DNA of 32,000 nt. It comes from Candidatus Saccharimonadota bacterium. Lineage in GTDB: Bacteria; Patescibacteriota; Saccharimonadia; Saccharimonadales; UBA4665. Positions within the stretch are counted from its first letter, which is position 1. Each line of letters begins with the position of its first letter. A program made the position numbers and the translations under genes. Shown one piece after another: positions 651 to 17,364 of this stretch. The stretch is taken from NCBI GenBank assembly GCA_002952755.1, contig CP025011.1:600001-632000 (forward strand), read 5' to 3'. The notes under the pieces were generated by a model that worked only from the letters and a program-made list of their open reading frames with translations, was not told the origin of the DNA and did not search any database.

Positions 651-785
651 GTGGGTGTGTCTGTATTTCGTGTGCCTAAAACCTTTATCAACTCTTTCCT
701 GCGTGCTGGAAAGCGCCTGTCGGCGCTATTTTTATGCTTTTTCTTTTTGCTAACTTCTACAATACCCACGCTCTCTGCGTATGCA
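651..785 (+). other. Sec-type signal peptide of the Rhs protein (aa 1-45)
   Basis: MGVSVFRVPKTFINSFLRAGKRLSALFLCFFFLLTSTIPTLSAYA|AE has a basic n-region, a hydrophobic core and an A-x-A-type cleavage site (AYA). Confidence 0.75.
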
Positions 786-3700
786 GCTGAACGGCTAGAC
801 TCACCTCCCAAAGCTCCTATAGATCAAAGCATAACTGCTGCTCATTCTAAAACCCCACCTACAGGCCTCAACACGCCAATGAAAACAGACTATGCACCTG
901 CTTTGTCGACACTTCAATCTAAGAACAAGTTAGCGGCTGACTATTCTCCTGCAGTTAAGGGAGCGTCATCAGTTTTAGGCATGACGAATAATACAACTCC
1001 GTCAAATAGCAGCGCAGCTGGCCTGCAATCTCCAGTCGTGCCTAAAACAGGTAAGACCGAGGAAATCATTAGCAAGCGAACCGCTAACTCGACTACGACG
1101 AAAAATGAAGACGGTAGCTATACCGTCCGAAAGTACGAAACCTCCAAATTCTACAAGCGGAATAACGACTGGAAAACGATTGACACTAAACTTGTAGAAG
1201 ACACCGACTCTGGTGATGCTGGCAATGTTCTTGGTGATATTTTTGGTAAGGCAGAATCATTATTTAAATCGACAAACACTTACACGGTGAAACAAAACGA
1301 CTGGCTGGCACGCTTTGCTCCGAGCGGCTCCAAGCAAGCCATGGTCCGTATAAAGAAGGGCAATCAGGAGGTTGGCTTCTCGCCGCAAAATGCTAAGGAT
1401 GGCGTTACGCCTATTGTTACAACTGACGATAACGGGGAGCAGACAGTCCATTACTATGATCTCTGGCCGGGCGTAAATCTTGAGTACATAGTCAAAGCGG
1501 ATGAACTCAAGGAAAACATAGTACTCAAAGACAAATTGGCCACAAGTGACTTTGCCTTTAATGTTACCGGCGCGACACTCAAGAAACCGGCAGCGAAGAC
1601 TGAAGTTGCCGGACCTATATACGATATCGATGGTGCATTGGGGAATGAATTTGCAGTAGCGCCCTTGGCTGTCGTGCTAAACGCATTTGGTGTCGAAGAT
1701 GCCGGTCCAGCCTTGCAGCACTCCTACGCGGATGGCGTGTTCAAGATTTCACTAACCCATGACTATGTATCTAATCTTCCGGGTAAGGCATTCCCTTTGG
1801 CAATTGACCCAACATATGTGCACCAAAATCACTTTGGGACACGTGCTGGCGGTAACTACGTAAGTTTTAAAAGTGACGGATACGTGTGCGACGCAACAAT
1901 TTGTAACCCATATTTCGGATCGGTGCTTGACTCTAATTACATATGGCGCAGCTGGCGCAGCATGCTTTTTTCTGACTATAGTGAAGTTAAAGGGCATCAG
2001 CTCAATAATGTCACGTTCCACTTCACACAGCGCCTTGGTCTGTCCGTATCTGGACCTACCGATCCGCATGCGTTATATACCTGGCATGGTAGCTGTTTTA
2101 ACTATAATTGCCGGGGAGTCCAAGGTGGGTCGGGCGTTGTTGGTACATCGGGGGACATCGATGTTACGGCAATCTACCAAAACCGCATTGCCGCCGGTGA
2201 CTATGGAGCATGGCTTCAGTTAAGTGGTGAAGAAGGTACTTATACGAGCTATAAAAATACTGATCCGGATAATTCGTGGGTCCAATTTACATTTACGGAC
2301 GTGCTGCCAGCTCCTAATATAGTCACCCCGGCTAACGGGCAGGTGTATATTGACCCCCAAGTTTCATTTAGTGCCACGCCAGGCTTGACTAATCCGTCGA
2401 GTAACGCAGCCTTGCAGTATAATTTTTGCGTCAGTACGGGCCCGGCTTGTGCGGGAGCGGTTATGGTATCCAGTCCGCAGCCCAGTTCTCAGTGGACGAT
2501 CCCCGATGGTCTGTTGCAGGACGGCACTACTTATTATGTGCAGGCACAAACGTACGATACGAACTTACAGATATACAGTCCTTATGGCGTTGCGGCATCT
2601 TTCAAAATAGATAGTCGCACTGGCAAAGATAGCACACAGGCCTATGACACACTCGGCCCGGTATCGGTGGATTTAGCAACTGGCAATGTGAATACTAGTG
2701 AGGCAAGTCATACGAGCGCGGCCCTCGGTGGAACCATGGGCATCAGCCTTGATTACAATTCGCCAGTTAAGTCACGTCGTGGCTTAGTCGGGAAATACTG
2801 GAATGTAGTCGCAAACTATGCCGGTGGTCTACCGGCAGGTTCGCCGGATTTGACGAGAGTGGACCAAACGGTTGATTTTGATTGGCAGACAGGTTCGCCA
2901 TTAGCAGGCACTATAAACAACGATTGGATTTATGCAGCCTGGGACGGATTCTTTGTGCCTCAGACCACGGGAACTTACTATTTCGGCGGCAATAATGACG
3001 ACATGCTGAGCATAAAGGTAAACGGCCAACAGCTTTATTCAAATGGGGGCTGCTACAGTGGCGTCTGTTATGGCTCATCGATTAATCTTGCGGCTGGCCA
3101 GGCGGTGCCAATTCATATGGAGTACGAAGAAGTAACGGGTCCTGCCTATGCCCATCTGCACGTAAAGACTCCTGATAGTGTTGATCATGTTATGCCAGTT
3201 GATTGGCTACAGACGGGCGTTAGGCCGGTAACACAGAATACGGGTTTGACTGGTAAGTACTATAGAGACCCTAATGGCACTCACGATTTTACTGACTCAA
3301 ACAATACACTTCTCATGCAGCGTACCGATCCTGTTGTCAGCTTTAACTGGCAGAGCGGGCCAGCTGTGCCAGGCGGTCCAAGTGATAAGTTCATGGCGAG
3401 ATGGACGGGATACGTGACTGCACCCACTAGTGGAAGTTATGACTTTGGGACGGTTAGCGACGACGGAAGTCGCATCACGATAGGCACTAATAATACTCAA
3501 ATCGTAAACAAATGGAATGATGATGGCGGAACACCAGCGTGGGGTACGTATTCATTAGTAGGCGGTGTGCCGACCCCGATTACCGTTGACTATTATGAAA
3601 ATGGCGGCGGGGCGATGATGTACCTCAAGATGCGCGGCAATGGCATGGCCGAACAGATTGTGCCTACCAGTTGGTTATCGACGGGAGCCTCCGTGCTGCC

Positions 3701-6700
3701 GAGTGGCTGGGCGATGGGAATCGACGCTGACGGCAATCTGTCGTACGACCACCTCAAAGCAATGCAGAACAGCGTAGTACTCACAGATTCAACCGGCAGT
3801 ACTCACGAATACGTTTGGGATAACGATAAGCAGAACTACAAGCCGCCGGTTAACGAAGATGGCAATTTAGTGCGAAATGCTGACGGTACTTACACACTCC
3901 AGGACACCGATGGCCGTACGTATGTATTCAAGGCCGATGGTACGATTGATTCAGTTACTTCAGCTACTGACGACTTGAAGCCGACAGCGCTGAAGTATCA
4001 ATATGGCGGCACACCGTCGCACCTAATTGAAATAACGGACGGCGTAGATACCTCTCGCTGGGCTAGGGCCTACTACTACGGTGATACCGCCAATTGCCCC
4101 GCATCGGTAATTGGCTTTGACACTCCAGCAGCTGCGCTAAATAAACTCTGTGCCGTAACGACCAATGATGGCCGTACTACGTCGATCTACTACAAAGACG
4201 GCAATCTGGTGCGTATCCAAAAGCCGGGTAACGAAATTACCGATTACCAATATGATGCGCCTGGAAGAATCGTATCAATGCGAGATTCAGTTGCAAACGA
4301 CGCCATTGCGGCTGGAGTACGCACCGATGATGCTACCGTCCTGACGGCACTTTACTATGACGATCTAGGGCGGGTTATCAGTGTGACTGAGCCTGCTGCT
4401 ACGGCGGGTGCTGTCCGTTTGCAGCATAGCCTCGAATATCTGCCAGGCAACGGTACCTACTACGGAGCAACTCAGCAACGTACGGTAGGGGCAACAGAAC
4501 CAAACGGCTATGCGCACCGAGTCGAGTATGATAGCCTATACCGCACGATCGCCGATAAAGACATCGCTGGTCTCACCGATACTACTGCATGGGATCCTGT
4601 AAAAGATCTCATGCTCAGCACAACTGATGAGACTGGCCTTAAATCAACGACTATTTACGACGACGACGATCGTGCAATATCCCACTATGGTCCGGCACCA
4701 GCGGCCTGGTACGGAACAGACCGTAAACCGTCAAGCTCATATGTTAACCAAGTCCCGCATACCGACACGAACTATGATGAAAATATCCCAGGCATGGCAC
4801 TTGCATACTACGGATATGCCCCCACGAGCAAAGTATTAACTGGTGCTCCTAAGCTTCATACTACGAATATTCCTGGCGCAGCCACCGGCACATTTAGTAA
4901 CGATTTTGGTACAACTTCTCCGATAACTGGGGTAACGGACAATTGGGGCTTCCGGGCTACTGCTAAATTACGCCTGCCTCTGACTGGCAACTATACCTAC
5001 AGAATTGTTTCCGACGACGGCGTGCGACTCTATATTGACGATACGCTACAACTTGATGACTGGAACGCTGGCCCTACTCGTAGCCACCCCGCCGTTGGTT
5101 ACGTAAATACTGCCAATACTCTGCATCGTTTTAAGATTGAGTATTTCCACACCAACGACGCTACCAGTACAAATAACGCGAACATTACCCTGTATATCAC
5201 CCCTCCCGGTGGCGCAGAAACAGCCGTTAATCTTACCCAGTACTTCACACCTGATTACGATTTGGTAACTTCTACCAAGGAGTATGATTCGGCCATCGGG
5301 GATGCTACAGCCACAACCAACTACGGCAGCAGTCCGGAACTTGGCCTAGCGCAAAGCAAAACAGCCGATTCAGCAGGTCTCAACCTGACCTCCTCAAGTA
5401 CGTACGAAACTCAAGGTGCCACTGGCAGCTTACTTCGTCAGACTAGTTCTACTCTTCCTGGCGGTACTACCTCTACCTACAGCTACTATGGCGCAACCGA
5501 AACACGGCAGAACCCCTGCAACACTTCACAAACCTTCAGACAGGCGGGTATGCTAAAACTAAAGACGGAGGCGGACCCAGACGGCGCTGGTTTACAGGCG
5601 GCACGTACCACCGAAACCGTGTATGATGATGCCGGAAGAGTGATAGCAACTCGCTTAAACAGCGACCCTTGGACTTGTACGACCTACGATGCACGTGGCC
5701 GTGTAACAGAAATCGACATTCCAGCCTTTAATGGTGCAGCTGCAAGGACAGTACGAAACGATTATGCTGTCGGCGGAAATCCATTTGAAGCTACAACTTG
5801 GGATGGCAGCGGCTGGATAGTAACTTGGATAGATCTGTTAGGGCGTACTACCAAATACCGCGACGTCTTTGACGACGAGACCATAACCACCTATGATAGC
5901 CTTGGTCGTATGACCCAACAACAAAGCCCTGCGGGGACCCAAACGTATATCTACGACAACTATAATCGGCTCACACAGCAACAGCTCGATGGCACCACAT
6001 TGGCCAATGTCTACTATGATGCATATGGCAGGATAGATCACGTCAGCTATCCAAATGCCGGCAATCTTGGCCTCGCCAGTATAAGCAGGGATGCTAATGG
6101 CCGGACAAGCGGGCTGACATATAACACCAGTACCAATACGCCTGGTTCTAATCTAGTGCCAAATCCATCACTTGAGACAGTAACAGCCGGCCAGCCAGAT
6201 AACTGGAACCAGGATCACTGGGGTACCAATACGACGAACTTTGCCTATTCCACTGACGCTCACACCGGTACTCATAGCGGCAGGGTAGATATGACCAGTT
6301 ACACCGATGGGGACGCCAAATGGGACTTTACCCCGGTTAACATCAGCGGTGGTACCAATTACACCTTTAGTGATTACTATAAATCAAATGTTGCCACCAA
6401 TGTCTTCGTGCAATATACCTACGCCGACAATAGTACTTCATATCAATGGCTCGGTAATCCGGCGGCCTCTAGCGGTAGTTGGGCGCAGGCAACCTACAAT
6501 TTTACTGCACCGGCTACAGCCATTAAAGCATCGATATTCCATGCGATAAACGCGGTCGGCTGGATGCAGTTAGATGATATGGACATGCATTTAACGTACG
6601 GGTCGGCAGCGGTTTCTGACGCTGTCACCCGCAGCCAGTCCGGACAAATCCTGAACGACATCGTAACTGCTGGCTCCAACAACCTCTGGAGCACCTACCA

Positions 6701-8111
6701 GTACGACAAAGCCGACAGATTAACTAGCGCGGCGATCGGGCCGCACACATACAGTTATGGCTTCGGGACAGAAAATGCAGCTTGTGGCAGCGGAGCCGGA
6801 ACAAATGTGAACGCTGGTAAAAACGGCAACCGTACCACGCAGACCATAGATGGCACAACTACTTGGTATTGCTACGACAATGCCGACCGGCTAATTAGCA
6901 GCAGTGATCCCACAGCCGATTACAGTGAATACGACCCTCATGGCAACATGACTTACCTTGGTACCGGCACCATACCACTGCGTCTGTGTTATGACTCCAG
7001 TGACCGTAATTCTTGTCTGGTTAACTACAATAGTTCGGGAAATGGCTCGGCCACGTACTATAGTCGTGATGTCCAGGGCCGTATAACCTACCGTGAAAAT
7101 GACACCATAACGGCCCGCAATTGGAACGCGAATTCTCAGATCTGGTACGATTACACGGGTGCGGGCGACACCCCGGATTACGCCCGTGACCCCAATTGGA
7201 ACATTGTAGAGAAATACATCCAACTTCCTGGTGGTGCAGAGCTGACAATCCGTCCACTGCAACCCACCGCTGCAGCCAAAGCCGTCTACTCACTCCCCAA
7301 CATCCACGGGGATACCCTGCTCACTACTGACGGCACCGGCACCAATACCTCCACCGGCAATGGCCCAGCCAACAGTTTTACCTACGATCCCTTCGGTAAT
7401 ATATTACCTGGCAGTACTCAGCCCAGTAACATAGCTGGTACTGGTTCCTTTGGCTGGCTTGGTCAACATGAGAAGTTCACTGAAAGTACTCTAGCTCTCG
7501 CACCAATTCAAATGGGCTCAAGAGTATATCTGCCGACGCTTGGACGATTCACGAGTGTAGACCCGGTGCAAGGCGGCACCGAGAACAATTACGTCTACGT
7601 CCTCGACCCAATTAACGAGTTCGATCTTGATGGCAACTTTGGCTGGGGCAACCTCGCGAAGAGCGTGACAAGGGTCGCGACGATTGGCTCGTTTGTACCG
7701 GGGCCGATAGGTTTAGCTTGCACTGGTGTAGCTGTGGCGGGCAATCTGGCACAAGGACACTACAAGGAAGCCGGACTTGCTGCTGTCGGGGGCGCCTTCG
7801 GAGTGGCAAGACTTGCAACGAAGGCGACGGCGATTGCAAGAGTTGCAGCGGCAACTTCTAAAGATGGCAATGCAGGCTTCAATATGCTCAAGGCGCATAC
7901 TATTACTGCTCGACTTGCTGGAAAGATATATACTTCGGGATCTAATGGGCAGAAAGGCTTTCGCATCGCTACTAAGGCCAGTGGAGCAAAGATCGCAAAT
8001 TTCGAACAGTTTAGGCGTAGCATCACGTATGCTAGCAGAAATAGTACTTTAAGGCGATTCCCGAATAGAAGTCAAAATCTACACCTTAGAATAGGAGGAT
8101 GGTTATGGTAA
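651..8111 (+). CDS. Giant secreted Rhs/YD-repeat polymorphic toxin (WapA-style, Sec signal) with PA14 and CBM-like modules and a variable C-terminal toxin tip
   Basis: A 7461-nt ORF of 2486 aa with a GTG start after an SD. It has an N-terminal signal peptide and an S/T/P-rich linker. There are many YD repeats: YQYDAPGRIVSM, YYDDLGRVISV, VEYDSLYRTI, VYDDAGRVIAT, TYDARGRVTEI, TYDSLGRMTQQ, IYDNYNRLTQQ, YYDAYGRIDHV, YQYDKADRLTSA, CYDNADRLISS, EYDPHGNMTYL. The RHS core reads FTYDPFGN...GWLGQHEKF...GSRVYLPTLGRFTSVDPVQGGTENNYVYVLDPINEFDLDGN and is followed by a non-repeat tail. Confidence 0.95.
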   Translation: MGVSVFRVPKTFINSFLRAGKRLSALFLCFFFLLTSTIPTLSAYAAERLDSPPKAPIDQSITAAHSKTPPTGLNTPMKTDYAPALSTLQSKNKLAADYSPAVKGASSVLGMTNNTTPSNSSAAGLQSPVVPKTGKTEEIISKRTANSTTTKNEDGSYTVRKYETSKFYKRNNDWKTIDTKLVEDTDSGDAGNVLGDIFGKAESLFKSTNTYTVKQNDWLARFAPSGSKQAMVRIKKGNQEVGFSPQNAKDGVTPIVTTDDNGEQTVHYYDLWPGVNLEYIVKADELKENIVLKDKLATSDFAFNVTGATLKKPAAKTEVAGPIYDIDGALGNEFAVAPLAVVLNAFGVEDAGPALQHSYADGVFKISLTHDYVSNLPGKAFPLAIDPTYVHQNHFGTRAGGNYVSFKSDGYVCDATICNPYFGSVLDSNYIWRSWRSMLFSDYSEVKGHQLNNVTFHFTQRLGLSVSGPTDPHALYTWHGSCFNYNCRGVQGGSGVVGTSGDIDVTAIYQNRIAAGDYGAWLQLSGEEGTYTSYKNTDPDNSWVQFTFTDVLPAPNIVTPANGQVYIDPQVSFSATPGLTNPSSNAALQYNFCVSTGPACAGAVMVSSPQPSSQWTIPDGLLQDGTTYYVQAQTYDTNLQIYSPYGVAASFKIDSRTGKDSTQAYDTLGPVSVDLATGNVNTSEASHTSAALGGTMGISLDYNSPVKSRRGLVGKYWNVVANYAGGLPAGSPDLTRVDQTVDFDWQTGSPLAGTINNDWIYAAWDGFFVPQTTGTYYFGGNNDDMLSIKVNGQQLYSNGGCYSGVCYGSSINLAAGQAVPIHMEYEEVTGPAYAHLHVKTPDSVDHVMPVDWLQTGVRPVTQNTGLTGKYYRDPNGTHDFTDSNNTLLMQRTDPVVSFNWQSGPAVPGGPSDKFMARWTGYVTAPTSGSYDFGTVSDDGSRITIGTNNTQIVNKWNDDGGTPAWGTYSLVGGVPTPITVDYYENGGGAMMYLKMRGNGMAEQIVPTSWLSTGASVLPSGWAMGIDADGNLSYDHLKAMQNSVVLTDSTGSTHEYVWDNDKQNYKPPVNEDGNLVRNADGTYTLQDTDGRTYVFKADGTIDSVTSATDDLKPTALKYQYGGTPSHLIEITDGVDTSRWARAYYYGDTANCPASVIGFDTPAAALNKLCAVTTNDGRTTSIYYKDGNLVRIQKPGNEITDYQYDAPGRIVSMRDSVANDAIAAGVRTDDATVLTALYYDDLGRVISVTEPAATAGAVRLQHSLEYLPGNGTYYGATQQRTVGATEPNGYAHRVEYDSLYRTIADKDIAGLTDTTAWDPVKDLMLSTTDETGLKSTTIYDDDDRAISHYGPAPAAWYGTDRKPSSSYVNQVPHTDTNYDENIPGMALAYYGYAPTSKVLTGAPKLHTTNIPGAATGTFSNDFGTTSPITGVTDNWGFRATAKLRLPLTGNYTYRIVSDDGVRLYIDDTLQLDDWNAGPTRSHPAVGYVNTANTLHRFKIEYFHTNDATSTNNANITLYITPPGGAETAVNLTQYFTPDYDLVTSTKEYDSAIGDATATTNYGSSPELGLAQSKTADSAGLNLTSSSTYETQGATGSLLRQTSSTLPGGTTSTYSYYGATETRQNPCNTSQTFRQAGMLKLKTEADPDGAGLQAARTTETVYDDAGRVIATRLNSDPWTCTTYDARGRVTEIDIPAFNGAAARTVRNDYAVGGNPFEATTWDGSGWIVTWIDLLGRTTKYRDVFDDETITTYDSLGRMTQQQSPAGTQTYIYDNYNRLTQQQLDGTTLANVYYDAYGRIDHVSYPNAGNLGLASISRDANGRTSGLTYNTSTNTPGSNLVPNPSLETVTAGQPDNWNQDHWGTNTTNFAYSTDAHTGTHSGRVDMTSYTDGDAKWDFTPVNISGGTNYTFSDYYKSNVATNVFVQYTYADNSTSYQWLGNPAASSGSWAQATYNFTAPATAIKASIFHAINAVGWMQLDDMDMHLTYGSAAVSDAVTRSQSGQILNDIVTAGSNNLWSTYQYDKADRLTSAAIGPHTYSYGFGTENAACGSGAGTNVNAGKNGNRTTQTIDGTTTWYCYDNADRLISSSDPTADYSEYDPHGNMTYLGTGTIPLRLCYDSSDRNSCLVNYNSSGNGSATYYSRDVQGRITYRENDTITARNWNANSQIWYDYTGAGDTPDYARDPNWNIVEKYIQLPGGAELTIRPLQPTAAAKAVYSLPNIHGDTLLTTDGTGTNTSTGNGPANSFTYDPFGNILPGSTQPSNIAGTGSFGWLGQHEKFTESTLALAPIQMGSRVYLPTLGRFTSVDPVQGGTENNYVYVLDPINEFDLDGNFGWGNLAKSVTRVATIGSFVPGPIGLACTGVAVAGNLAQGHYKEAGLAAVGGAFGVARLATKATAIARVAAATSKDGNAGFNMLKAHTITARLAGKIYTSGSNGQKGFRIATKASGAKIANFEQFRRSITYASRNSTLRRFPNRSQNLHLRIGGWLW
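2781..3216 (+). other. PA14 domain 1
   Basis: GLVGKYWNV...TRVDQTVDFDWQTGSP...AAWDGFFVPQTTGTYYFGGNNDDMLSIKVNGQ...HMEYEE matches the PA14 pattern (GLxGxYW/Y, xVDFxW, rWxG, tGxYxF, DDxxxlxi). Confidence 0.8.
3243..3686 (+). other. PA14 domain 2
   Basis: GLTGKYYRDPNG...RTDPVVSFNWQSG...DKFMARWTGYVTAPTSGSYDFGTVSDDGSRITIG...VDYYENGGGAMMYL is a canonical PA14 motif series. Confidence 0.85.
4791..5262 (+). other. PA14 domain 3, inserted between blocks of YD repeats
   Basis: GMALAYYGY...DNWGFRATAKLRLPLTGNYTYRIVSDDGVRLYIDD...HRFKIEYFH. YD repeats lie on both sides (ending about 4700 and restarting about 5600). Confidence 0.75.
6150..6590 (+). other. CBM4/9-like carbohydrate-binding (jelly-roll) module inserted in the YD-repeat region
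   Basis: NLVPNPSLETVTAGQPDNWNQDHWGTNTTNFAYSTDAHTGTHSGRVDMTSYTDGDAKWDF...GGTNYTFSDYYKS...WAQATYNFTAPATA...GWMQLDDMDM. The NPSFE/xxxPxxW...GxxSxxV...Y.fS.w.k pattern is typical of CBM_4_9-type modules. This is assigned by motif only. Confidence 0.55.
7377..7637 (+). other. RHS repeat-associated core domain ending in a variant cleavage motif
   Basis: FTYDPFGNILPG...GWLGQHEKFTES...IQMGSRVYLPTLGRFTSVDPVQGGTENNYVYVLDPINEFDLDGN. The canonical cores end in DPxGL, whereas here the ending is D-L-D-G-N. Confidence 0.85.
7638..8108 (+). other. Variable C-terminal toxin tip (157 aa), family not recognised
   Basis: The position immediately after the RHS core is where polymorphic toxins carry their effector. 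The sequence is FGWGNLAKSVTRVATIGSFVPGPIGLACTGVAVAGNLAQGHYKEAGLAAVGGAFGVARLATKATAIARVAAATSKDGNAGFNMLKAHTITARLAGKIYTSGSNGQKGFRIATKASGAKIANFEQFRRSITYASRNSTLRRFPNRSQNLHLRIGGWLW. I could not find any known catalytic motif in it. Confidence 0.7.
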
Positions 8112-8473
8112 GTGTAAAACTGAATAATGTATTCATCGAGCACGGGGAAAAAGAACTCCTTTCAAAATCTTTGGGTCAAAAAAATACGCGTTGGTATGCT
8201 GCCGTTGCCTTGGATTTAACTGATCTATCTTCAAATCAGAAAATCGCTGAATGGTTCTACCTAATGTTATGTTCGCCTGAGTACGCTAAACAACCTTTTA
8301 AAAGGGGCCCGCATATCGAAACCGACCAACCCTATGTCGTGGTCCAAGACCAATTAGATATGGACAAGGCATTAAAGATCGCAGAAGACAAAGTGAAAAT
8401 TATTCAGGCCGATAACTGGGACGAGTTCTATACTAAAATGAGCGAAGAATTCCTATATGAAGATAAGGCCTAA
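8105..8473 (+). CDS. Putative cognate immunity protein (acidic, Imm8-like motif pattern)
   Basis: AGGAGG at 8093-8098 lies 6 nt before ATG 8105. The ATG at 8099 given in the ORF track has zero spacer. The start overlaps the Rhs stop (ATGGTAA, TAA at 8109-8111). The protein has 21 D/E against 15 K/R. The motifs WFYLMLCSPEY, PYVVVQD and NWDEFYTKMSEEFLYED resemble my recollection of Imm8 family proteins (FxVxVCTPxW ... hLIV ... TWxEVxxKLxxxxxWEFEDY). Confidence 0.7.
   Translation: MVSVKLNNVFIEHGEKELLSKSLGQKNTRWYAAVALDLTDLSSNQKIAEWFYLMLCSPEYAKQPFKRGPHIETDQPYVVVQDQLDMDKALKIAEDKVKIIQADNWDEFYTKMSEEFLYEDKA
8192..8360 (+). repeat. Direct repeat copy 1 (169 bp, inside the immunity gene)
   Basis: By base-by-base comparison it is identical to 9211-9379 (offset 1019 bp). 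Confidence 0.95.
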
Positions 8474-8481
8474 ACTGAAAG

Positions 8482-8907
8482 ATGGTAAGTAATTCAGTTG
8501 ACGAAGTCATTCATAAAATTAAGCACGTATACGATGCTGATATATCAATCCAAAATGAAGGAAATCAGTTCATCGACAAAAGGTTAACTATTAAAGACCT
8601 ACATGATAATGGAGTTACGATAGAGCTTAGTTTTAACAGTGAGGGTAAGGCTTCTATGCTTCAGCTACTGGGCTTTAAAGACGCAAATTTCAATATAGCG
8701 GAAGAATATACAAGCAATACAATATTGGAAGCAGTTTTTTTGTTAATGCAGGGTGATTTTAGTATAAAAAGAAGCGTATTTGGCCGCCCGTCACTGCTCG
8801 TTAAACAATTTGGAATAAAATTTAAAGCGACAGGCGGCACTAGAGTAGACGTTGGACCATACGCAAACTCTGCCAGCAAGGAAGAATCTAAATACGCTGA
8901 CCTTTAG
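8482..8907 (+). CDS. Hypothetical protein (141 aa) in the toxin/immunity cassette; possible second immunity or accessory protein
   Basis: The ORF starts 8 nt after the immunity-gene stop on the same strand. It is AT-rich (about 35% GC in 8521-8580 by hand count). I see no recognisable motifs, signal peptide or TM segment. Confidence 0.6.
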   Translation: MVSNSVDEVIHKIKHVYDADISIQNEGNQFIDKRLTIKDLHDNGVTIELSFNSEGKASMLQLLGFKDANFNIAEEYTSNTILEAVFLLMQGDFSIKRSVFGRPSLLVKQFGIKFKATGGTRVDVGPYANSASKEESKYADL

Positions 8908-8937
8908 GACGCCAGCTTAGGGGAGTAAAATAACGGC

Positions 8938-9405
8938 ATGCGCATAGAAGACTTCGAAGCAGCTATAGCTGCTACTGGACTAGTCGGCGCAGGTGCAGTT
9001 ACTAAACTTGCCGCGAAAGCTGTAGATCATGCTGCCTTAGCTGGGAAGAGTGCTAATATAATTGCACGTGCAGCGGAGGGCGCTGGTGCCAAATTGGCAA
9101 GAGCTCAATCAAACTTGCCACTAGTGGGGAGTGCGAGCAGAGTTTTTAGGAGATATATCAGCTACAATGAAAAAATATGTAGTTCAGCATACCAAATAAG
9201 TCTAGGAGGATGGTATGCTGCCGTTGCCTTGGATTTAACTGATCTATCTTCAAATCAGAAAATCGCTGAATGGTTCTACCTAATGTTATGTTCGCCTGAG
9301 TACGCTAAACAACCTTTTAAAAGGGGCCCGCATATCGAAACCGACCAACCCTATGTCGTGGTCCAAGACCAATTAGATAAACTACAACCTGACTACTTGT
9401 TCTAA
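8938..9405 (+). CDS. Orphan divergent toxin-tip fragment fused in frame to a truncated copy of the immunity gene (probable recombination remnant)
   Basis: It has its own ATG with GGGGAG 12 nt upstream. Residues 1-91 (..ATGLVGAGAVTKLAAKAV...RVFRRYISYNEK...ISLGGW) align loosely with the last ~110 aa of the Rhs tip (..AGLAAVGGAFGVARLATKAT...EQFRRSITYASR...LRIGGW). Residues 92-147 are identical to immunity residues W-Y-A-A-V...VVQDQLD. The last 8 aa (KLQPDYLF) are unrelated. Confidence 0.6.
   Translation: MRIEDFEAAIAATGLVGAGAVTKLAAKAVDHAALAGKSANIIARAAEGAGAKLARAQSNLPLVGSASRVFRRYISYNEKICSSAYQISLGGWYAAVALDLTDLSSNQKIAEWFYLMLCSPEYAKQPFKRGPHIETDQPYVVVQDQLDKLQPDYLF
9211..9379 (+). repeat. Direct repeat copy 2 (169 bp, inside the orphan fusion ORF)
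   Basis: It is identical to 8192-8360. The 12 nt preceding it (taggaggatggt, 9203-9214, overlapping the repeat start) also occur at 8092-8103. Confidence 0.95.
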
Positions 9406-9639
9406 TATTTGCTATAATACTGCCCCAACCAAGATATTCTCTTTAGGAATTAATAGGTTTTCCCTCTGGAAACCGCCAAGCCATTGATGAGGATGTGAGC
9501 GCGGCGGCGGAGTATGGAGCCAGAGCCGTTAATCTTGAACATCATCAGCTGTTAAAATTAAGGTCTTTCGAGGTGATAACCTGAGGAGCGCGGCTATGAG
9601 CCCTTCGAGCATTTTCATCTTGCTTCTGCATCTGGAGAT

Positions 9640-10383
9640 CTACTTATCTAAAAACTCCTGTACCACATTCGCTAGAATCATCCCACCTTTTGTATTAAGA
9701 TGAACACCATCGACATGATATTTCCAACCATTCATTTCAGCTATTTCATCGAAACTATGACGCAGAATAAATTCACGCCAATAATAATCGCGAAAAAAGG
9801 AACGCCAACGAAATTCAGTAAACGCTTTACCGGGTGAAGCCTCTATTTGTTCTTCGAGTTTTTCGTAAAAGGGAATGTAGTCCACGCCTTCCTGTTCCGC
9901 AACTTCCTTGATAATGCCCGCGAACTCCTTTGCCAGCTGGGCGAGGCGGGCCTGGTTTGGGTTCCGGGAGTGCGGGTCCTCGCCGATAAGGGGCAGTGAG
10001 GTGAGACCGATCCGGGCGGAAGTCGTGGATTTCAGCTTCCTCACAATCGCCTCCAGGTTCTCGCGATACCACTCAGATGTGGGTTCGGTCGGTAGTCGTT
10101 TCCAGCGGGTCTCGACTCGCCTTACGATCGGAAATGCTTGGCAGAGGAGGTCGTTCCCGCCGGTGATGAGGACGACATAGTCCGGGTGGACGGCGATTGT
10201 CTTGTGCAGGCGTTGCAGCGTTTTGTAGGCCACATCGCCGCCGATGCCGCGGTTGACGAACTTGAGGTGCTCGTTCTGGGGGCGTCGCTCCAGCTCCTTG
10301 ATCCAGTTGAAGACGCCATGGGCGGCAGCAGTACTACTTCCCACACAGGCAACGATTCCTGATTGCTGATTTTGATCCTGCAT
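9640..10383 (-). CDS. SGNH/GDSL-family hydrolase (lipase or esterase-like)
   Basis: The SGNH blocks are present: VACVGSSTAAAHG (block I Ser), NRGIGGD (block II Gly), ITGGNDL (block III Asn), DGVHLN (block V His). GAGGGGG lies upstream of the ATG. Confidence 0.8.
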   Translation of the reverse strand: MQDQNQQSGIVACVGSSTAAAHGVFNWIKELERRPQNEHLKFVNRGIGGDVAYKTLQRLHKTIAVHPDYVVLITGGNDLLCQAFPIVRRVETRWKRLPTEPTSEWYRENLEAIVRKLKSTTSARIGLTSLPLIGEDPHSRNPNQARLAQLAKEFAGIIKEVAEQEGVDYIPFYEKLEEQIEASPGKAFTEFRWRSFFRDYYWREFILRHSFDEIAEMNGWKYHVDGVHLNTKGGMILANVVQEFLDK

Positions 10384-15309: not shown

Positions 15310-17364
15310 ATGAAAAGAATCCGTTATTGGCTCCTCGCAATAGCTATGGCCGTACTGCCGTTTATATCAGTAGGACGAGCGTTAGCAGTAAGTTGTGGGG
15401 CTGGGAAAAGCATGAATGTTGTCGCACACGAAGACGACGATCTGCTCTTTCTAAATCCAGCTATTTTGCACGACATCCAAAATAACAGGTGCGTGCAAAC
15501 AGTATTTATGACAGCCGGTGATGCCGGTAGCGGGTCTAGTTATTGGGGCGGACGAGAGTCGGGAATGAAGGCAGCGTATGCGCAGATGGCCGGCGTTAGC
15601 AATGTATGGGATGATACGACACCAACTATTTTGGGCCACACCGCGCACTTGTCTACCTTGCATAATGCGCCGCAGGTATCGTTGCTGTTTCTGCGACTAC
15701 CAGACGGCGGTGAACATGATGGTATTGAGGGCTTTGCTAGTGATAACTATGAAACGATGCGTAAGCTTTGGCAGGGTACCATTGGTACGATACATGCTGT
15801 AGACGGGTCGGCTAGTTACGCACGGGAAGAACTTACCGATACATTAGCCACGCAGATGGCGCTCTATGAGCCAGGTACTATTCGTTCATTGGACTATACA
15901 GGTACCTATAGCGACTTGAGCGGAGGTGATGACGACCATTGGGATCACCACTCGAGCGCCTATTTTACACAGGTCGCCCAAGCTAAACATACCGTAGTCT
16001 CACACATGCTAACGGGGTATATGGGGTATCCAGTTGATAGCCAGAGTACGAACATTTCAGGCACAGATCTGACGAACAAGCAGAACGCGTTTTACACATA
16101 CAATGCCTATGATGGCGGTGACTGTACGAGCAGCAGCAATTGCACCGCCGTGCTGGCAGATTATTTACAAAAACAATATGCAGTGGGAACACAGTCGGGC
16201 AGTAATCGTTGGTCATATACCACTATGGAGGGTGACCCCGGTTCTTTAAGCGGCCGGAATGCTGATGTTGGCAATCAGCCGTCAACGGTTGTTTTTGGCA
16301 CCAATGTATATAGTTTCTATTACGACGCTACAGCAGGCGATTTACGCTACGCCAAATCATCTACCAGTACTACAACGCCTAGCTGGACATTCGGCATACT
16401 CGACGGTGCGGGTGGCTCAAGCGGCCGCTTGAATACCGACCTTGGGTTAACCCCTAATTCGATCGTGTTCAATGGCGTGTTGCATGTGTTCTACTACGAT
16501 CCGACTAGTGGTAACTTGCGCCATGGTTGGACATCTGACGGGGTTAATTGGTCATTTAACAACCATGATGGGGATACGGGCTCTATCGGCGGTCTGAACG
16601 CCAATCTGGGTAAAACTCCAATTGCGACAGTATACGGATCGTCTCTCCAGCTATTTTACTACGATGCGAGCAATGGTAATCTACGCCACTCATGGTCATC
16701 TGACGGTAGTGCATGGTCATTTGAGACCCTGGATGGGGACAGTGGTGCAGTGTCTGGGTATAACGCCAACGTTGGTGGGGACCCAAGCGTTACTGTTTAC
16801 GGATCGACCTTGCAGCTATTCTATTACGATTTGACACAGGGGGACCTGCGCCATGCATGGTCGGATGCGAGCGGTTGGCACTTCGAGACGCTCGATGGAA
16901 GTGGCGGTTCGAGTGGCAGGGTATCGGCGGATGTAGGCATTACTTCTACAGTAGCTGTGCAAGGTTCATATCTGAATGTTTTTTACTATGATTCATCAAA
17001 TGGAAACCTAAGGCATATGTGGACTAGCCCAACTGCCGGTTGGCAGGCCGAGAATCTTATCGGTGATGCTTCCTCAGTAGTTCGCTACAATGGTTCTATC
17101 GGCGCTATGCCGGTGGCTATAGCCAACGGCAGCGCCATGGAATTGTTCACCTATGACGCTTCGCATCAGGCTCTTATTCACCTGTGGGATGCGGGCAGCG
17201 GGTGGCAGGAAGAGTCAGTAGATGGTTTTGGCGCCGATAGCGCAGGCACGGTCGGTAGCAACGTAGGGCTCGATCCTAGTTTAGTTATTTACGGCTCGGC
17301 CTTACATGTCATTTACTACGATGCAGGTCAGGGTAATCTGCGTTATGCGCAACTCAGTATCTAG
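15310..17364 (+). CDS. Secreted PIG-L/LmbE-family deacetylase fused to a seven-blade lectin-like beta-propeller
   Basis: AGGGGG lies 4 nt before the ATG. The signal peptide is MKRIRYWLLAIAMAVLPFISVGRALA|V. PIG-L motifs are VVAHEDDDLLF (AHxDD) and DDDHWDHH (HxDH). The C-terminal half consists of seven ~54-aa tandem repeats. Confidence 0.85.
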   Translation: MKRIRYWLLAIAMAVLPFISVGRALAVSCGAGKSMNVVAHEDDDLLFLNPAILHDIQNNRCVQTVFMTAGDAGSGSSYWGGRESGMKAAYAQMAGVSNVWDDTTPTILGHTAHLSTLHNAPQVSLLFLRLPDGGEHDGIEGFASDNYETMRKLWQGTIGTIHAVDGSASYAREELTDTLATQMALYEPGTIRSLDYTGTYSDLSGGDDDHWDHHSSAYFTQVAQAKHTVVSHMLTGYMGYPVDSQSTNISGTDLTNKQNAFYTYNAYDGGDCTSSSNCTAVLADYLQKQYAVGTQSGSNRWSYTTMEGDPGSLSGRNADVGNQPSTVVFGTNVYSFYYDATAGDLRYAKSSTSTTTPSWTFGILDGAGGSSGRLNTDLGLTPNSIVFNGVLHVFYYDPTSGNLRHGWTSDGVNWSFNNHDGDTGSIGGLNANLGKTPIATVYGSSLQLFYYDASNGNLRHSWSSDGSAWSFETLDGDSGAVSGYNANVGGDPSVTVYGSTLQLFYYDLTQGDLRHAWSDASGWHFETLDGSGGSSGRVSADVGITSTVAVQGSYLNVFYYDSSNGNLRHMWTSPTAGWQAENLIGDASSVVRYNGSIGAMPVAIANGSAMELFTYDASHQALIHLWDAGSGWQEESVDGFGADSAGTVGSNVGLDPSLVIYGSALHVIYYDAGQGNLRYAQLSI
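16210..17361 (+). repeat. Seven tandem ~54-aa protein repeats (beta-propeller blades)
   Basis: Each unit reads W-x-F/A-E-x-L-D-G-x-x-G-x-x-G-x-x-x-A-x-V-G-x-x-P-S-x-x-V-Y-G-x-x-L-x-h-F-Y-Y-D-x-x-x-G-N/D-L-R-H/Y-x-W. Examples are WSFETLDGDSGAVSGYNANVGGDPSVTVYGSTLQLFYYDLTQGDLRHAWSDASG and WHFETLDGSGGSSGRVSADVGITSTVAVQGSYLNVFYYDSSNGNLRHMWTSPTAG. Confidence 0.85.

Follow-up and report, generated by a model that had tools for sequence, protein, structure and literature searches.

A perfect 169-bp repeat in a Saccharimonadota Rhs locus as a probable scar of recent recombination joining an immunity-gene fragment to a displaced toxin tip

In the classical model, orphan rhs-CT/cdiA-CT and immunity modules arise by displacement of toxin tips. 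Microhomology-mediated tandem duplications leave remnants in bacterial genomes. The Saccharibacteria are ultrasmall episymbionts whose interbacterial weapons have been little studied. In Salmonella Typhimurium LT2, the main and orphan rhs genes share a 522-bp repeat with 95% identity located in the rhs coding region, and recombination fuses the orphan tip to the main rhs, activating the orphan, which keeps its own immunity gene (Koskiniemi et al. 2014, PMC3967940). Among the polymorphic toxins, Ntox7 is recognized by the DGx+xhR and N motifs; it is the main partner of the Imm8 immunity proteins, for which a C-terminal W-E-aromatic motif is the defining feature (Zhang et al. 2012, PMC3482391). 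Here we analyze a stretch of 32,000 nucleotides (nt) from the genome of a Candidatus Saccharimonadota bacterium, a soil member of the Saccharimonadales (Saccharibacteria) (positions 600,001 to 632,000 of contig CP025011.1; hereafter, the window, with all coordinates given relative to its first letter), in which an Rhs toxin gene is followed by an Imm8-family immunity gene, a small gene encoding 141 amino acids (aa) and a truncated orphan tip, and in which an internal part of the immunity gene recurs, base for base, behind the orphan. The account that we favor, with reasonable although far from complete confidence, is that this arrangement is a scar of recent recombination, in which a fragment of the immunity gene was pasted onto an old, displaced tip, giving rise to a chimeric pseudogene. 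The relevant features are the following:

651..8111, forward strand: Rhs/YD-repeat polymorphic toxin, 2486 aa (Pfam PA14 and RHS_repeat; TIGR03696)
7764..8954, forward strand: block absent from ~90%-identical Rhs loci (four-way alignment)
8105..8473, forward strand: intact Imm8-family immunity gene, 122 aa (Pfam Imm8; collinear homologues)
8192..8360, forward strand: repeat copy 1, the source copy (immunity codons W30-D85 plus 1 nt)
8482..8907, forward strand: 141-aa gene with no assigned family (no Pfam or NCBIfam match)
8938..9405, forward strand: chimeric open reading frame (ORF), 155 aa (tip remnant, Imm8 fragment and tail)
8955..9150, forward strand: orphan tip segment, homologous to the main Rhs tip of relatives (protein and DNA alignment)
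9203..9214, forward strand: TAGGAGGATGGT, identical to 8092-8103 (end of the toxin tip and Shine-Dalgarno sequence for the overlapping immunity start)
9211..9379, forward strand: repeat copy 2, the derived copy (internal Imm8 fragment)
9380..9405, forward strand: tail KLQPDYLF and stop codon, of uncertain origin

The segments 8192-8360 and 9211-9379, the starts of which are 1019 nt apart, are identical over 169 nt with zero mismatches. Chance cannot account for a perfect match of this length in 32 kb; this pair is the sole high-identity direct repeat of 30 nt or longer in the entire window, where the only other repeat family is a protein-motif repeat of 53 nt with 64-72% identity. The identity ends abruptly on both sides: the left flanks are unrelated (CGCGT/TGGTATG at copy 1 and GAGGA/TGGTATG at copy 2), and so are the right flanks (TTAGATA/TGGACAAGG at copy 1 and TTAGATA/AACTACAACC at copy 2). 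The left flank of copy 2 is the 3' end of a toxin and that of copy 1 is the 5' region of the immunity gene. A preliminary description of this locus had reported base-for-base identity of the two segments next to diverged sequence; both statements stand, with no differences between the copies on re-inspection and with neither flank alignable in DNA.

Support for the two-copy layout comes from public read-set assemblies (Logan contigs, k=31, from at least five sequencing runs and at least two accession series). The contigs that carry the Rhs gene stop at window position 8221 in three runs (L004-L006); a 910-bp contig (L002), present in four samples, is exactly window 8331-9240, with the unique 850-bp segment forming one unbranched contig that has the repeat on both sides; and the contig with the downstream GDSL gene (L003) ends at window position 9350. 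In every case the break is k-1 = 30 nt into the repeat, and each of the four junctions is represented, as expected of a true two-in/two-out repeat. Because contigs from several runs break in this manner at all four junctions, an artefact of a single assembly, the possibility raised in the preliminary description, is excluded. All public contigs with the Rhs gene of the window are 100% identical to it, and the JGI copy of the Rhs protein is identical as well; the read evidence is therefore replicated for one clone rather than for independent lineages.

Copy 1 resides in an intact gene. The start codon of the immunity gene overlaps the toxin stop (ATGGTAA; there is an alternative ATG at 8099), and its 122-aa product matches Pfam Imm8 (PF15586) with an E-value of 2.1e-5 and 25.1 bits, the gathering cutoff being 27 bits; a precomputed family table lists PF15586 for P0001, P0002, and P0004. 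The same tip/immunity pair recurs, with about 50-59% identity, in two contigs from soil metagenomes, L001 and L007, and the immunity gene is collinear over its full length with the 46-50% identical homologues behind this tip type in the two contigs, so that copy 1 is identified as the native copy. One homologue of the immunity gene was detected in the JGI metagenomes (L007), and none among 185,579 species-representative genomes. The protein of the window contains the sequence NWDEFY, in which N104, W105, D106, F108, and Y109 are invariant in three homologues; this motif lies outside the repeat; the main gene has it, whereas copy 2 and the product of a deletion between the copies do not. Copy 1 carries 24 of the 43 family-invariant positions.

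Copy 2, by contrast with this complete gene, is an isolated internal piece: codons 1-29 and the final 37 codons of Imm8 are missing from it and, with them, 19 of the 43 invariant positions (NWDEFY included), and there is no Imm8 sequence to either side. In a low-confidence AlphaFold2 model, copy 2 corresponds to strands 2-3 and a loop, with strand 1 and two C-terminal helices gone; no solved structures related to Imm8 were found. The fragment continues, in frame, the reading frame of a tip remnant, so that the 155-aa ORF comprises tip residues 1-92, Imm8 residues W30-D85 and the 8-aa tail KLQPDYLF, with the junction tryptophan shared between the first two parts (tip aa 92 is Imm8 W30). No convincing promoter or Shine-Dalgarno sequence was identified ahead of this ORF, which most likely encodes a pseudogene product.

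The remnant has its counterparts in the main tips of related loci. The first 69 residues of ORF 8938-9405 match the main tips of the Rhs proteins in L054 and L056 (73% and 70% aa identity, respectively; E-value 2e-28), and the identity to L054 at the nucleotide level is 88% over 117 nt. A full HMMER scan added further homologues, P0009 (E-value 2.5e-9) and P0012, both located within arrays of tips and small genes. Compared with L054 and L056, the orphan tip lacks about 31-37 internal residues and is truncated at the 5' end, beginning about 50 residues beyond the Rhs core. It is a tip fragment without a delivery region, downstream of a main toxin/immunity pair, as expected of an orphan; it shares with the main gene no conserved stretch on which homologous recombination could act, the only similarity being a loose one of ~19 nt around GAAGC. 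The orphan's own immunity gene, of the 124-aa type seen in L052, L054, and L056, is absent from window 8400-9700, and its place is taken by the fused Imm8 fragment, copy 2. No other gene remnants were detected in 9380-9640, and the idea that KLQPDYLF is a remnant of the C-terminus of the 124-aa family was abandoned, the similarity not being significant (p 0.16).

The context of the orphan becomes apparent from comparison with related soil genomes, in which the loci of P0014 and P0016 (L054/L055 and L056) were identified. The Rhs protein of the window clusters with P0014 and P0016 at 90% identity or more, and its main tip differs from the tip of these ~90%-identical relatives. L054/L055 and L056 employ the tip type of the orphan as the main tip, followed by a 124-aa immunity-like gene that, in L054 and L056, shares its family with the genes that follow P0009 in L052; no homologues of the Imm8 gene or of the 141-aa gene are present in the L054, L055, and L056 loci. 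Window 7000-7784 aligns to L054 9227-10011 (80%) and window 8955-9071 to L054 9993-10109 (88%), and L056 behaves likewise; relative to the sister loci, ~7764-8954 is hence an extra block of ~1.2 kb, consisting of the distal main tip, the Imm8 gene, and the 141-aa gene. The pentanucleotide GAAGC is found at both edges of the block (7767-7771 and 8956-8960). The comparison with related genomes suggested in the preliminary description gives, in short, an extra block in the window and the repeat arrangement in none of the relatives. Judged by these alignments, the orphan is a displaced alternative tip. The direction can be read in two ways: the block may be a gain of the window or a loss of the relatives, the latter through fusion of the main gene with the orphan.

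The third component of the region between the copies, the 141-aa gene, is probably an orphan immunity-type gene. Scans of its product against Pfam and NCBIfam gave no match, and its sole homologue is P0006 in L008, with 62% identity. We discarded a connection of the 141-aa gene to the 124-aa immunity family of the orphan tip (BLASTP E-value 0.12; hhalign probability 2%, then 5%); there is a weak collinear similarity between the two, with an hhalign E-value of 0.0074 and a probability of 5%. In L008 (9343-12135), P0006 is encoded within an island of small unannotated genes between housekeeping genes, with no toxin nearby; three genes of the island, that for P0006 among them, start with MV, and the island resembles the polyimmunity type. 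The preliminary description held that the 1019-bp unit contains the 3' end of the immunity gene, the 141-aa gene, and the orphan tip, and this is the case. The designation of the unit as a toxin/immunity cassette does not survive: the tip is a truncated remnant, its own immunity gene is missing, and the link to the 141-aa gene stays at an hhalign probability of 2-5%.

Under the scenario that we favor, a block of ~1.2 kb carrying a new tip, the Imm8 gene, and the 141-aa gene would have come to lie before the orphan, displacing the old tip, and copy 2 would be a recent, non-reciprocal partial duplicate of the Imm8 core that was joined in frame, at TGGT, to the last codons of the orphan. The copies show 0 differences in 169 nt, as against a divergence of 12% that separates the orphan from its closest relatives. 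No reading other than a recent copying event is reasonable. If the block was inserted, copy 2 can be no older than the block, because the source Imm8 gene belongs to it; under either direction, copy 2 was derived in the lineage of the window because it is absent from all relatives. The repeat, the gene fragments, the absence of the block from relatives, the identity of the orphan, and the lack of homology in the flanks are observed directly; the direction and order of the events, the mechanism of the join, and the selection against a deletion are what we infer. The last 4 nt of TAGGAGGATGGT are TGGT, which are also the first 4 nt of copy 2, so that the left join shows a microhomology; TGGT occurs also at 8100, 8106, and 8192. 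Two histories are the most likely, namely, a tandem duplication of 8192-9210 mediated by TGGT, after which a deletion beyond the second 169 bp would have removed the last codons of the orphan together with its immunity gene, or a single template-switch event. The 8 identical bases to the left of copy 2 (TAGGAGGA) were considered as part of the copied tract and not counted, because a similar motif, TAGGAGGAT, ends the tip in L053, so that these bases might reflect family-wide conservation; at the tip ends elsewhere, TAGGAGGA acts as the Shine-Dalgarno sequence of the overlapping immunity start. A Campbell-type integration of a circle with the 169 bp was rejected as well, given that a full-length collinear Imm8 gene would have to be assembled by chance from two molecules. 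Once formed, the repeat could in principle be lost again by deletion between the copies; if the toxin is active, cells with the deletion should be sensitive to the toxin of their siblings and hence be removed, which would explain the persistence of the repeat.

Several observations weigh against this scenario. The tail KLQPDYLF resembles the Imm8 C-terminus KMSEEFLY (BLOSUM score 18; simulated p ~0.004), and a weak similarity to the main tip is seen in the 22 residues that end the orphan tip (E-value 0.014); these two resemblances could point to a diverged Imm8 paralogue that was once present and was converted. The AlphaFold2 model of the immunity protein has low confidence (predicted local distance difference test score of 60), and the toxicity of the tip and the immunity function of the Imm8 gene are predictions. 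With no second strain of the species available, the state before the duplication is a reconstruction. Finally, a de Bruijn graph cannot separate the assembled order from a mixture with deletion or amplified forms, and minority forms of either kind may be compatible with the assembly graph.

The first pair of these observations is the basis of the strongest alternative, gene conversion, which we nevertheless regard as unlikely. It posits that the orphan site once had an Ntox7-like tip end and a diverged Imm8 paralogue, the center of which was overwritten by sequence from the main gene, and it has to add separate deletions of the 5' 92 nt of the paralogue and of about 75 nt near its 3' end. Apart from the Imm8-like tail (p ~0.004) and the tip end (FRRYISY...SLGGW, compared with FRRSITY...RIGGW in the main tip; E-value 0.014), the sharing of TAGGAGGATGGT by the two sites is in its favor; this 12-mer, however, is conserved in the family. 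Orphan-type tips in L052, L053, L054, and L056 pair with other immunity-like genes and not with Imm8, and at least three events would be needed, with ends that coincide exactly with the conversion tract. A conversion tract is expected to lie inside homologous, diverged sequence, whereas there is no DNA similarity in either flank of the repeat. Non-homologous flanks, together with a left join made of 4 nt of microhomology, are better accounted for by a template switch or a partial duplication of illegitimate origin than by classical gene conversion. Of the earlier proposal of a very recent duplication or gene conversion, the recent copying is retained and classical gene conversion is the less fitting part.

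A different alternative proposes a functional device, with the repeat kept for RecA-mediated toggling of immunity or of the copy number of the 141-aa gene and the orphan tip, or with the chimera expressed in a role of its own. A perfect direct repeat of 169 bp is a plausible substrate for RecA (cf. Lovett et al. 2002, as cited in PMC3967940), of sufficient length for homologous recombination, so that RecA-dependent deletion or amplification of the 1019-bp unit is possible in principle; the fusion is in frame, within an open ORF with an ATG; and rearrangement at the main/orphan rhs repeats is selected in Salmonella (PMC3967940). The predicted deletion product speaks against this proposal. It is a 93-aa hybrid ending in ...VVQDQLDKLQPDYLF, in which the last 37 immunity residues, including the W-[DE]-aromatic motif, are exchanged for 8 residues, and 10 of the 43 family-invariant positions, the C-terminal NWDEFY among them, are lost along with the rest of the conserved C-terminal third; the exact deletion-product proteins, in both possible forms, are absent from a public collection of 15 billion proteins. 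The preliminary description was right that deletion would leave an immunity gene with an alternative short C-terminus, and its view of the repeat as a RecA substrate is sustained as to length but not as to use: because the product loses conserved positions and is absent from public proteins, the repeat is a possible substrate without evidence of use. Furthermore, the arrangement is conserved in no relative and is known from one clone, and the chimera, from which strand 1 and the two C-terminal helices of the modeled fold are missing, has no convincing promoter or Shine-Dalgarno sequence ahead of it. We consider such a device improbable, and its specific form as a maintained one, with reversible RecA switching to immunity-deficient or multi-copy subpopulations or with an expressed toxin-modulating fusion, slightly more doubtful still. 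If the device were real, loss of the intervening genes would be lethal because collapse of the repeat destroys the essential immunity gene.

The weakest alternative, a single genomic copy doubled by mis-joining in the assembly or through a mixture of strains, to which the similarity of the repeat to the read length and the apparent origin of the genome from metagenomic or uncultured material lend some plausibility, is very improbable and already largely refuted by the k-mer paths across all four junctions in several runs of at least two accession series and by the unbranched 850-bp segment between the repeats, with the minimal graph path equal to the assembled order.

The toxin itself conforms to the architecture of Rhs/YD-repeat polymorphic toxins, with RHS/YD repeats, a core with a DPxGL-type end motif, and a small immunity gene right behind the tip. 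It contains a signal-peptide-like N-terminus, three PA14 domains (E-value 3e-44), RHS repeats (RHS_repeat, E-value 2.7e-7), the Rhs-associated core (TIGR03696 Rhs_assc_core, E-value 1.5e-9, above its cutoff), and a C-terminal tip of ~150 aa. The core, for which the closest relatives are metagenome-assembled genomes of Candidatus Saccharimonadales, terminates at DPINEFDLDG (aa 2319-2328; nt 7605-7634) and is followed by the variable tip, the first half of which is Ala/Gly-rich and hydrophobic and is common to other Rhs proteins of the Saccharimonadales. No Pfam toxin domain was detected even at E<=10. At the level of motifs, with no profile match, the tip in L007 (RDGLRGFR...ANFE) fits the Ntox7 DGx+xhR signature and the following N; the window tip reads NGQKGFR, at 7944-7964, with ANFE further on, again as a motif without a profile match, with Asn at the position of the motif's Asp. 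Because of this replacement, the toxin of the window may be attenuated or a variant. The 2486-aa Rhs protein, with its three PA14 domains, is large for so small a genome (1.45 Mb).

In this toxin superfamily, the tips terminate in h-x-h-G-G-(W/Y)-x-W-stop, with the stop overlapping the immunity start (ATGGTA), as observed at window 8092-8111, L007 ~405-432, L052 ~270-295, and L053 ~4489-4511. The GG codons of the tip end double as the GGAGG Shine-Dalgarno sequence, and this translational-coupling junction is kept across otherwise diverged cassettes. Arrays of Rhs orphan modules are found in L053 (104-4966) and L052 (20-1983). In L053, two core-bearing orphans come after an HNH-type tip with a DUF2314 gene, and a further tip (P0012) is joined straight to a core fragment (HGDAMATTNAAG); in L052, there are two successive tip/immunity pairs of one family, with the second tip cut to about 35 residues. 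The ~90%-identical Rhs locus of L054 and L055 lies between genes for serine recombinases (Resolvase and Recombinase domains), a Toprim protein, and a PIN-TPR protein (L054 307-2466 and 16673-20362, and likewise in L055), a context that differs from those of the window and L056; given the recombinase neighbors and the differing contexts of the sister loci, the whole Rhs locus might be located on or beside a mobile element. Elsewhere in the window, at 16633-17342, four copies of the 53-nt motif (64-72% identity, spaced by about 165 or 330 nt) fall within an ORF of 684 aa (15310-17364), the identical L003 counterpart of which has a weak PIG-L match; the motif has the appearance of a repeat internal to the protein.

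The locus is a clean natural case of toxin-tip replacement in the Rhs proteins of Saccharibacteria, with cassette boundaries that can be read to within a few bases because the sister genomes keep the cassette-free state. It suggests that illegitimate recombination in Rhs loci can copy fragments of immunity genes and not just toxin tips, and that such events can give rise to direct repeats that would, on collapsing, abolish immunity. In annotations, the 155-aa ORF is to be treated as a chimeric pseudogene rather than as a new toxin or immunity protein. The case adds a further example of known locus dynamics in an unusual host lineage and leaves the understanding of polymorphic toxins unchanged.

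Compared with the rhs locus of Salmonella LT2, the window has the same order of an rhs gene of full length with an immunity gene followed by a tip fragment without the delivery part, and the direct repeats in both loci can support duplication or deletion. The differences are that the repeat of the window lies in the immunity gene, so that recombination would only damage immunity, that the main gene and the orphan share almost no DNA, and that the orphan is without an immunity gene. Like the classical orphans in L016, L025, L030, and L053, the orphan tip is of the main tip type of sister lineages and is located directly behind a newer tip/immunity block. Classical orphans keep part of the 3' end of the core and an intact cognate immunity gene, whereas the orphan of the window has neither and, unlike them, is internally deleted and fused to an immunity fragment from another module. 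The repeats of the classical orphans in L016, L025, and L030 (50-290 nt, 70-85% identity) lie in the rhs core, none of them in the immunity gene; the repeat of the window is accordingly not the usual conserved recombination handle. With the Ntox7/Imm8 pairs (PMC3482391), the locus shares the Imm8 match and the C-terminal W-[DE]-aromatic motif, along with the Ntox7-like motif in the L007 tip; it differs from them in a Pfam score just under the cutoff, the lack of a toxin-domain match, and N in place of the motif D. The perfect short direct repeat, the 4-nt microhomology at the join, and the non-homologous flanks are features of microhomology duplication remnants; unlike in such remnants, just 169 bp of the presumed 1019-bp second copy remain, so that a second event, a deletion, or else a template switch must be assumed. 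Set beside these systems, the locus is missing two of the features that define functional orphan modules, and its most fitting description is that of an orphan in decay that bears the scar of a duplication.

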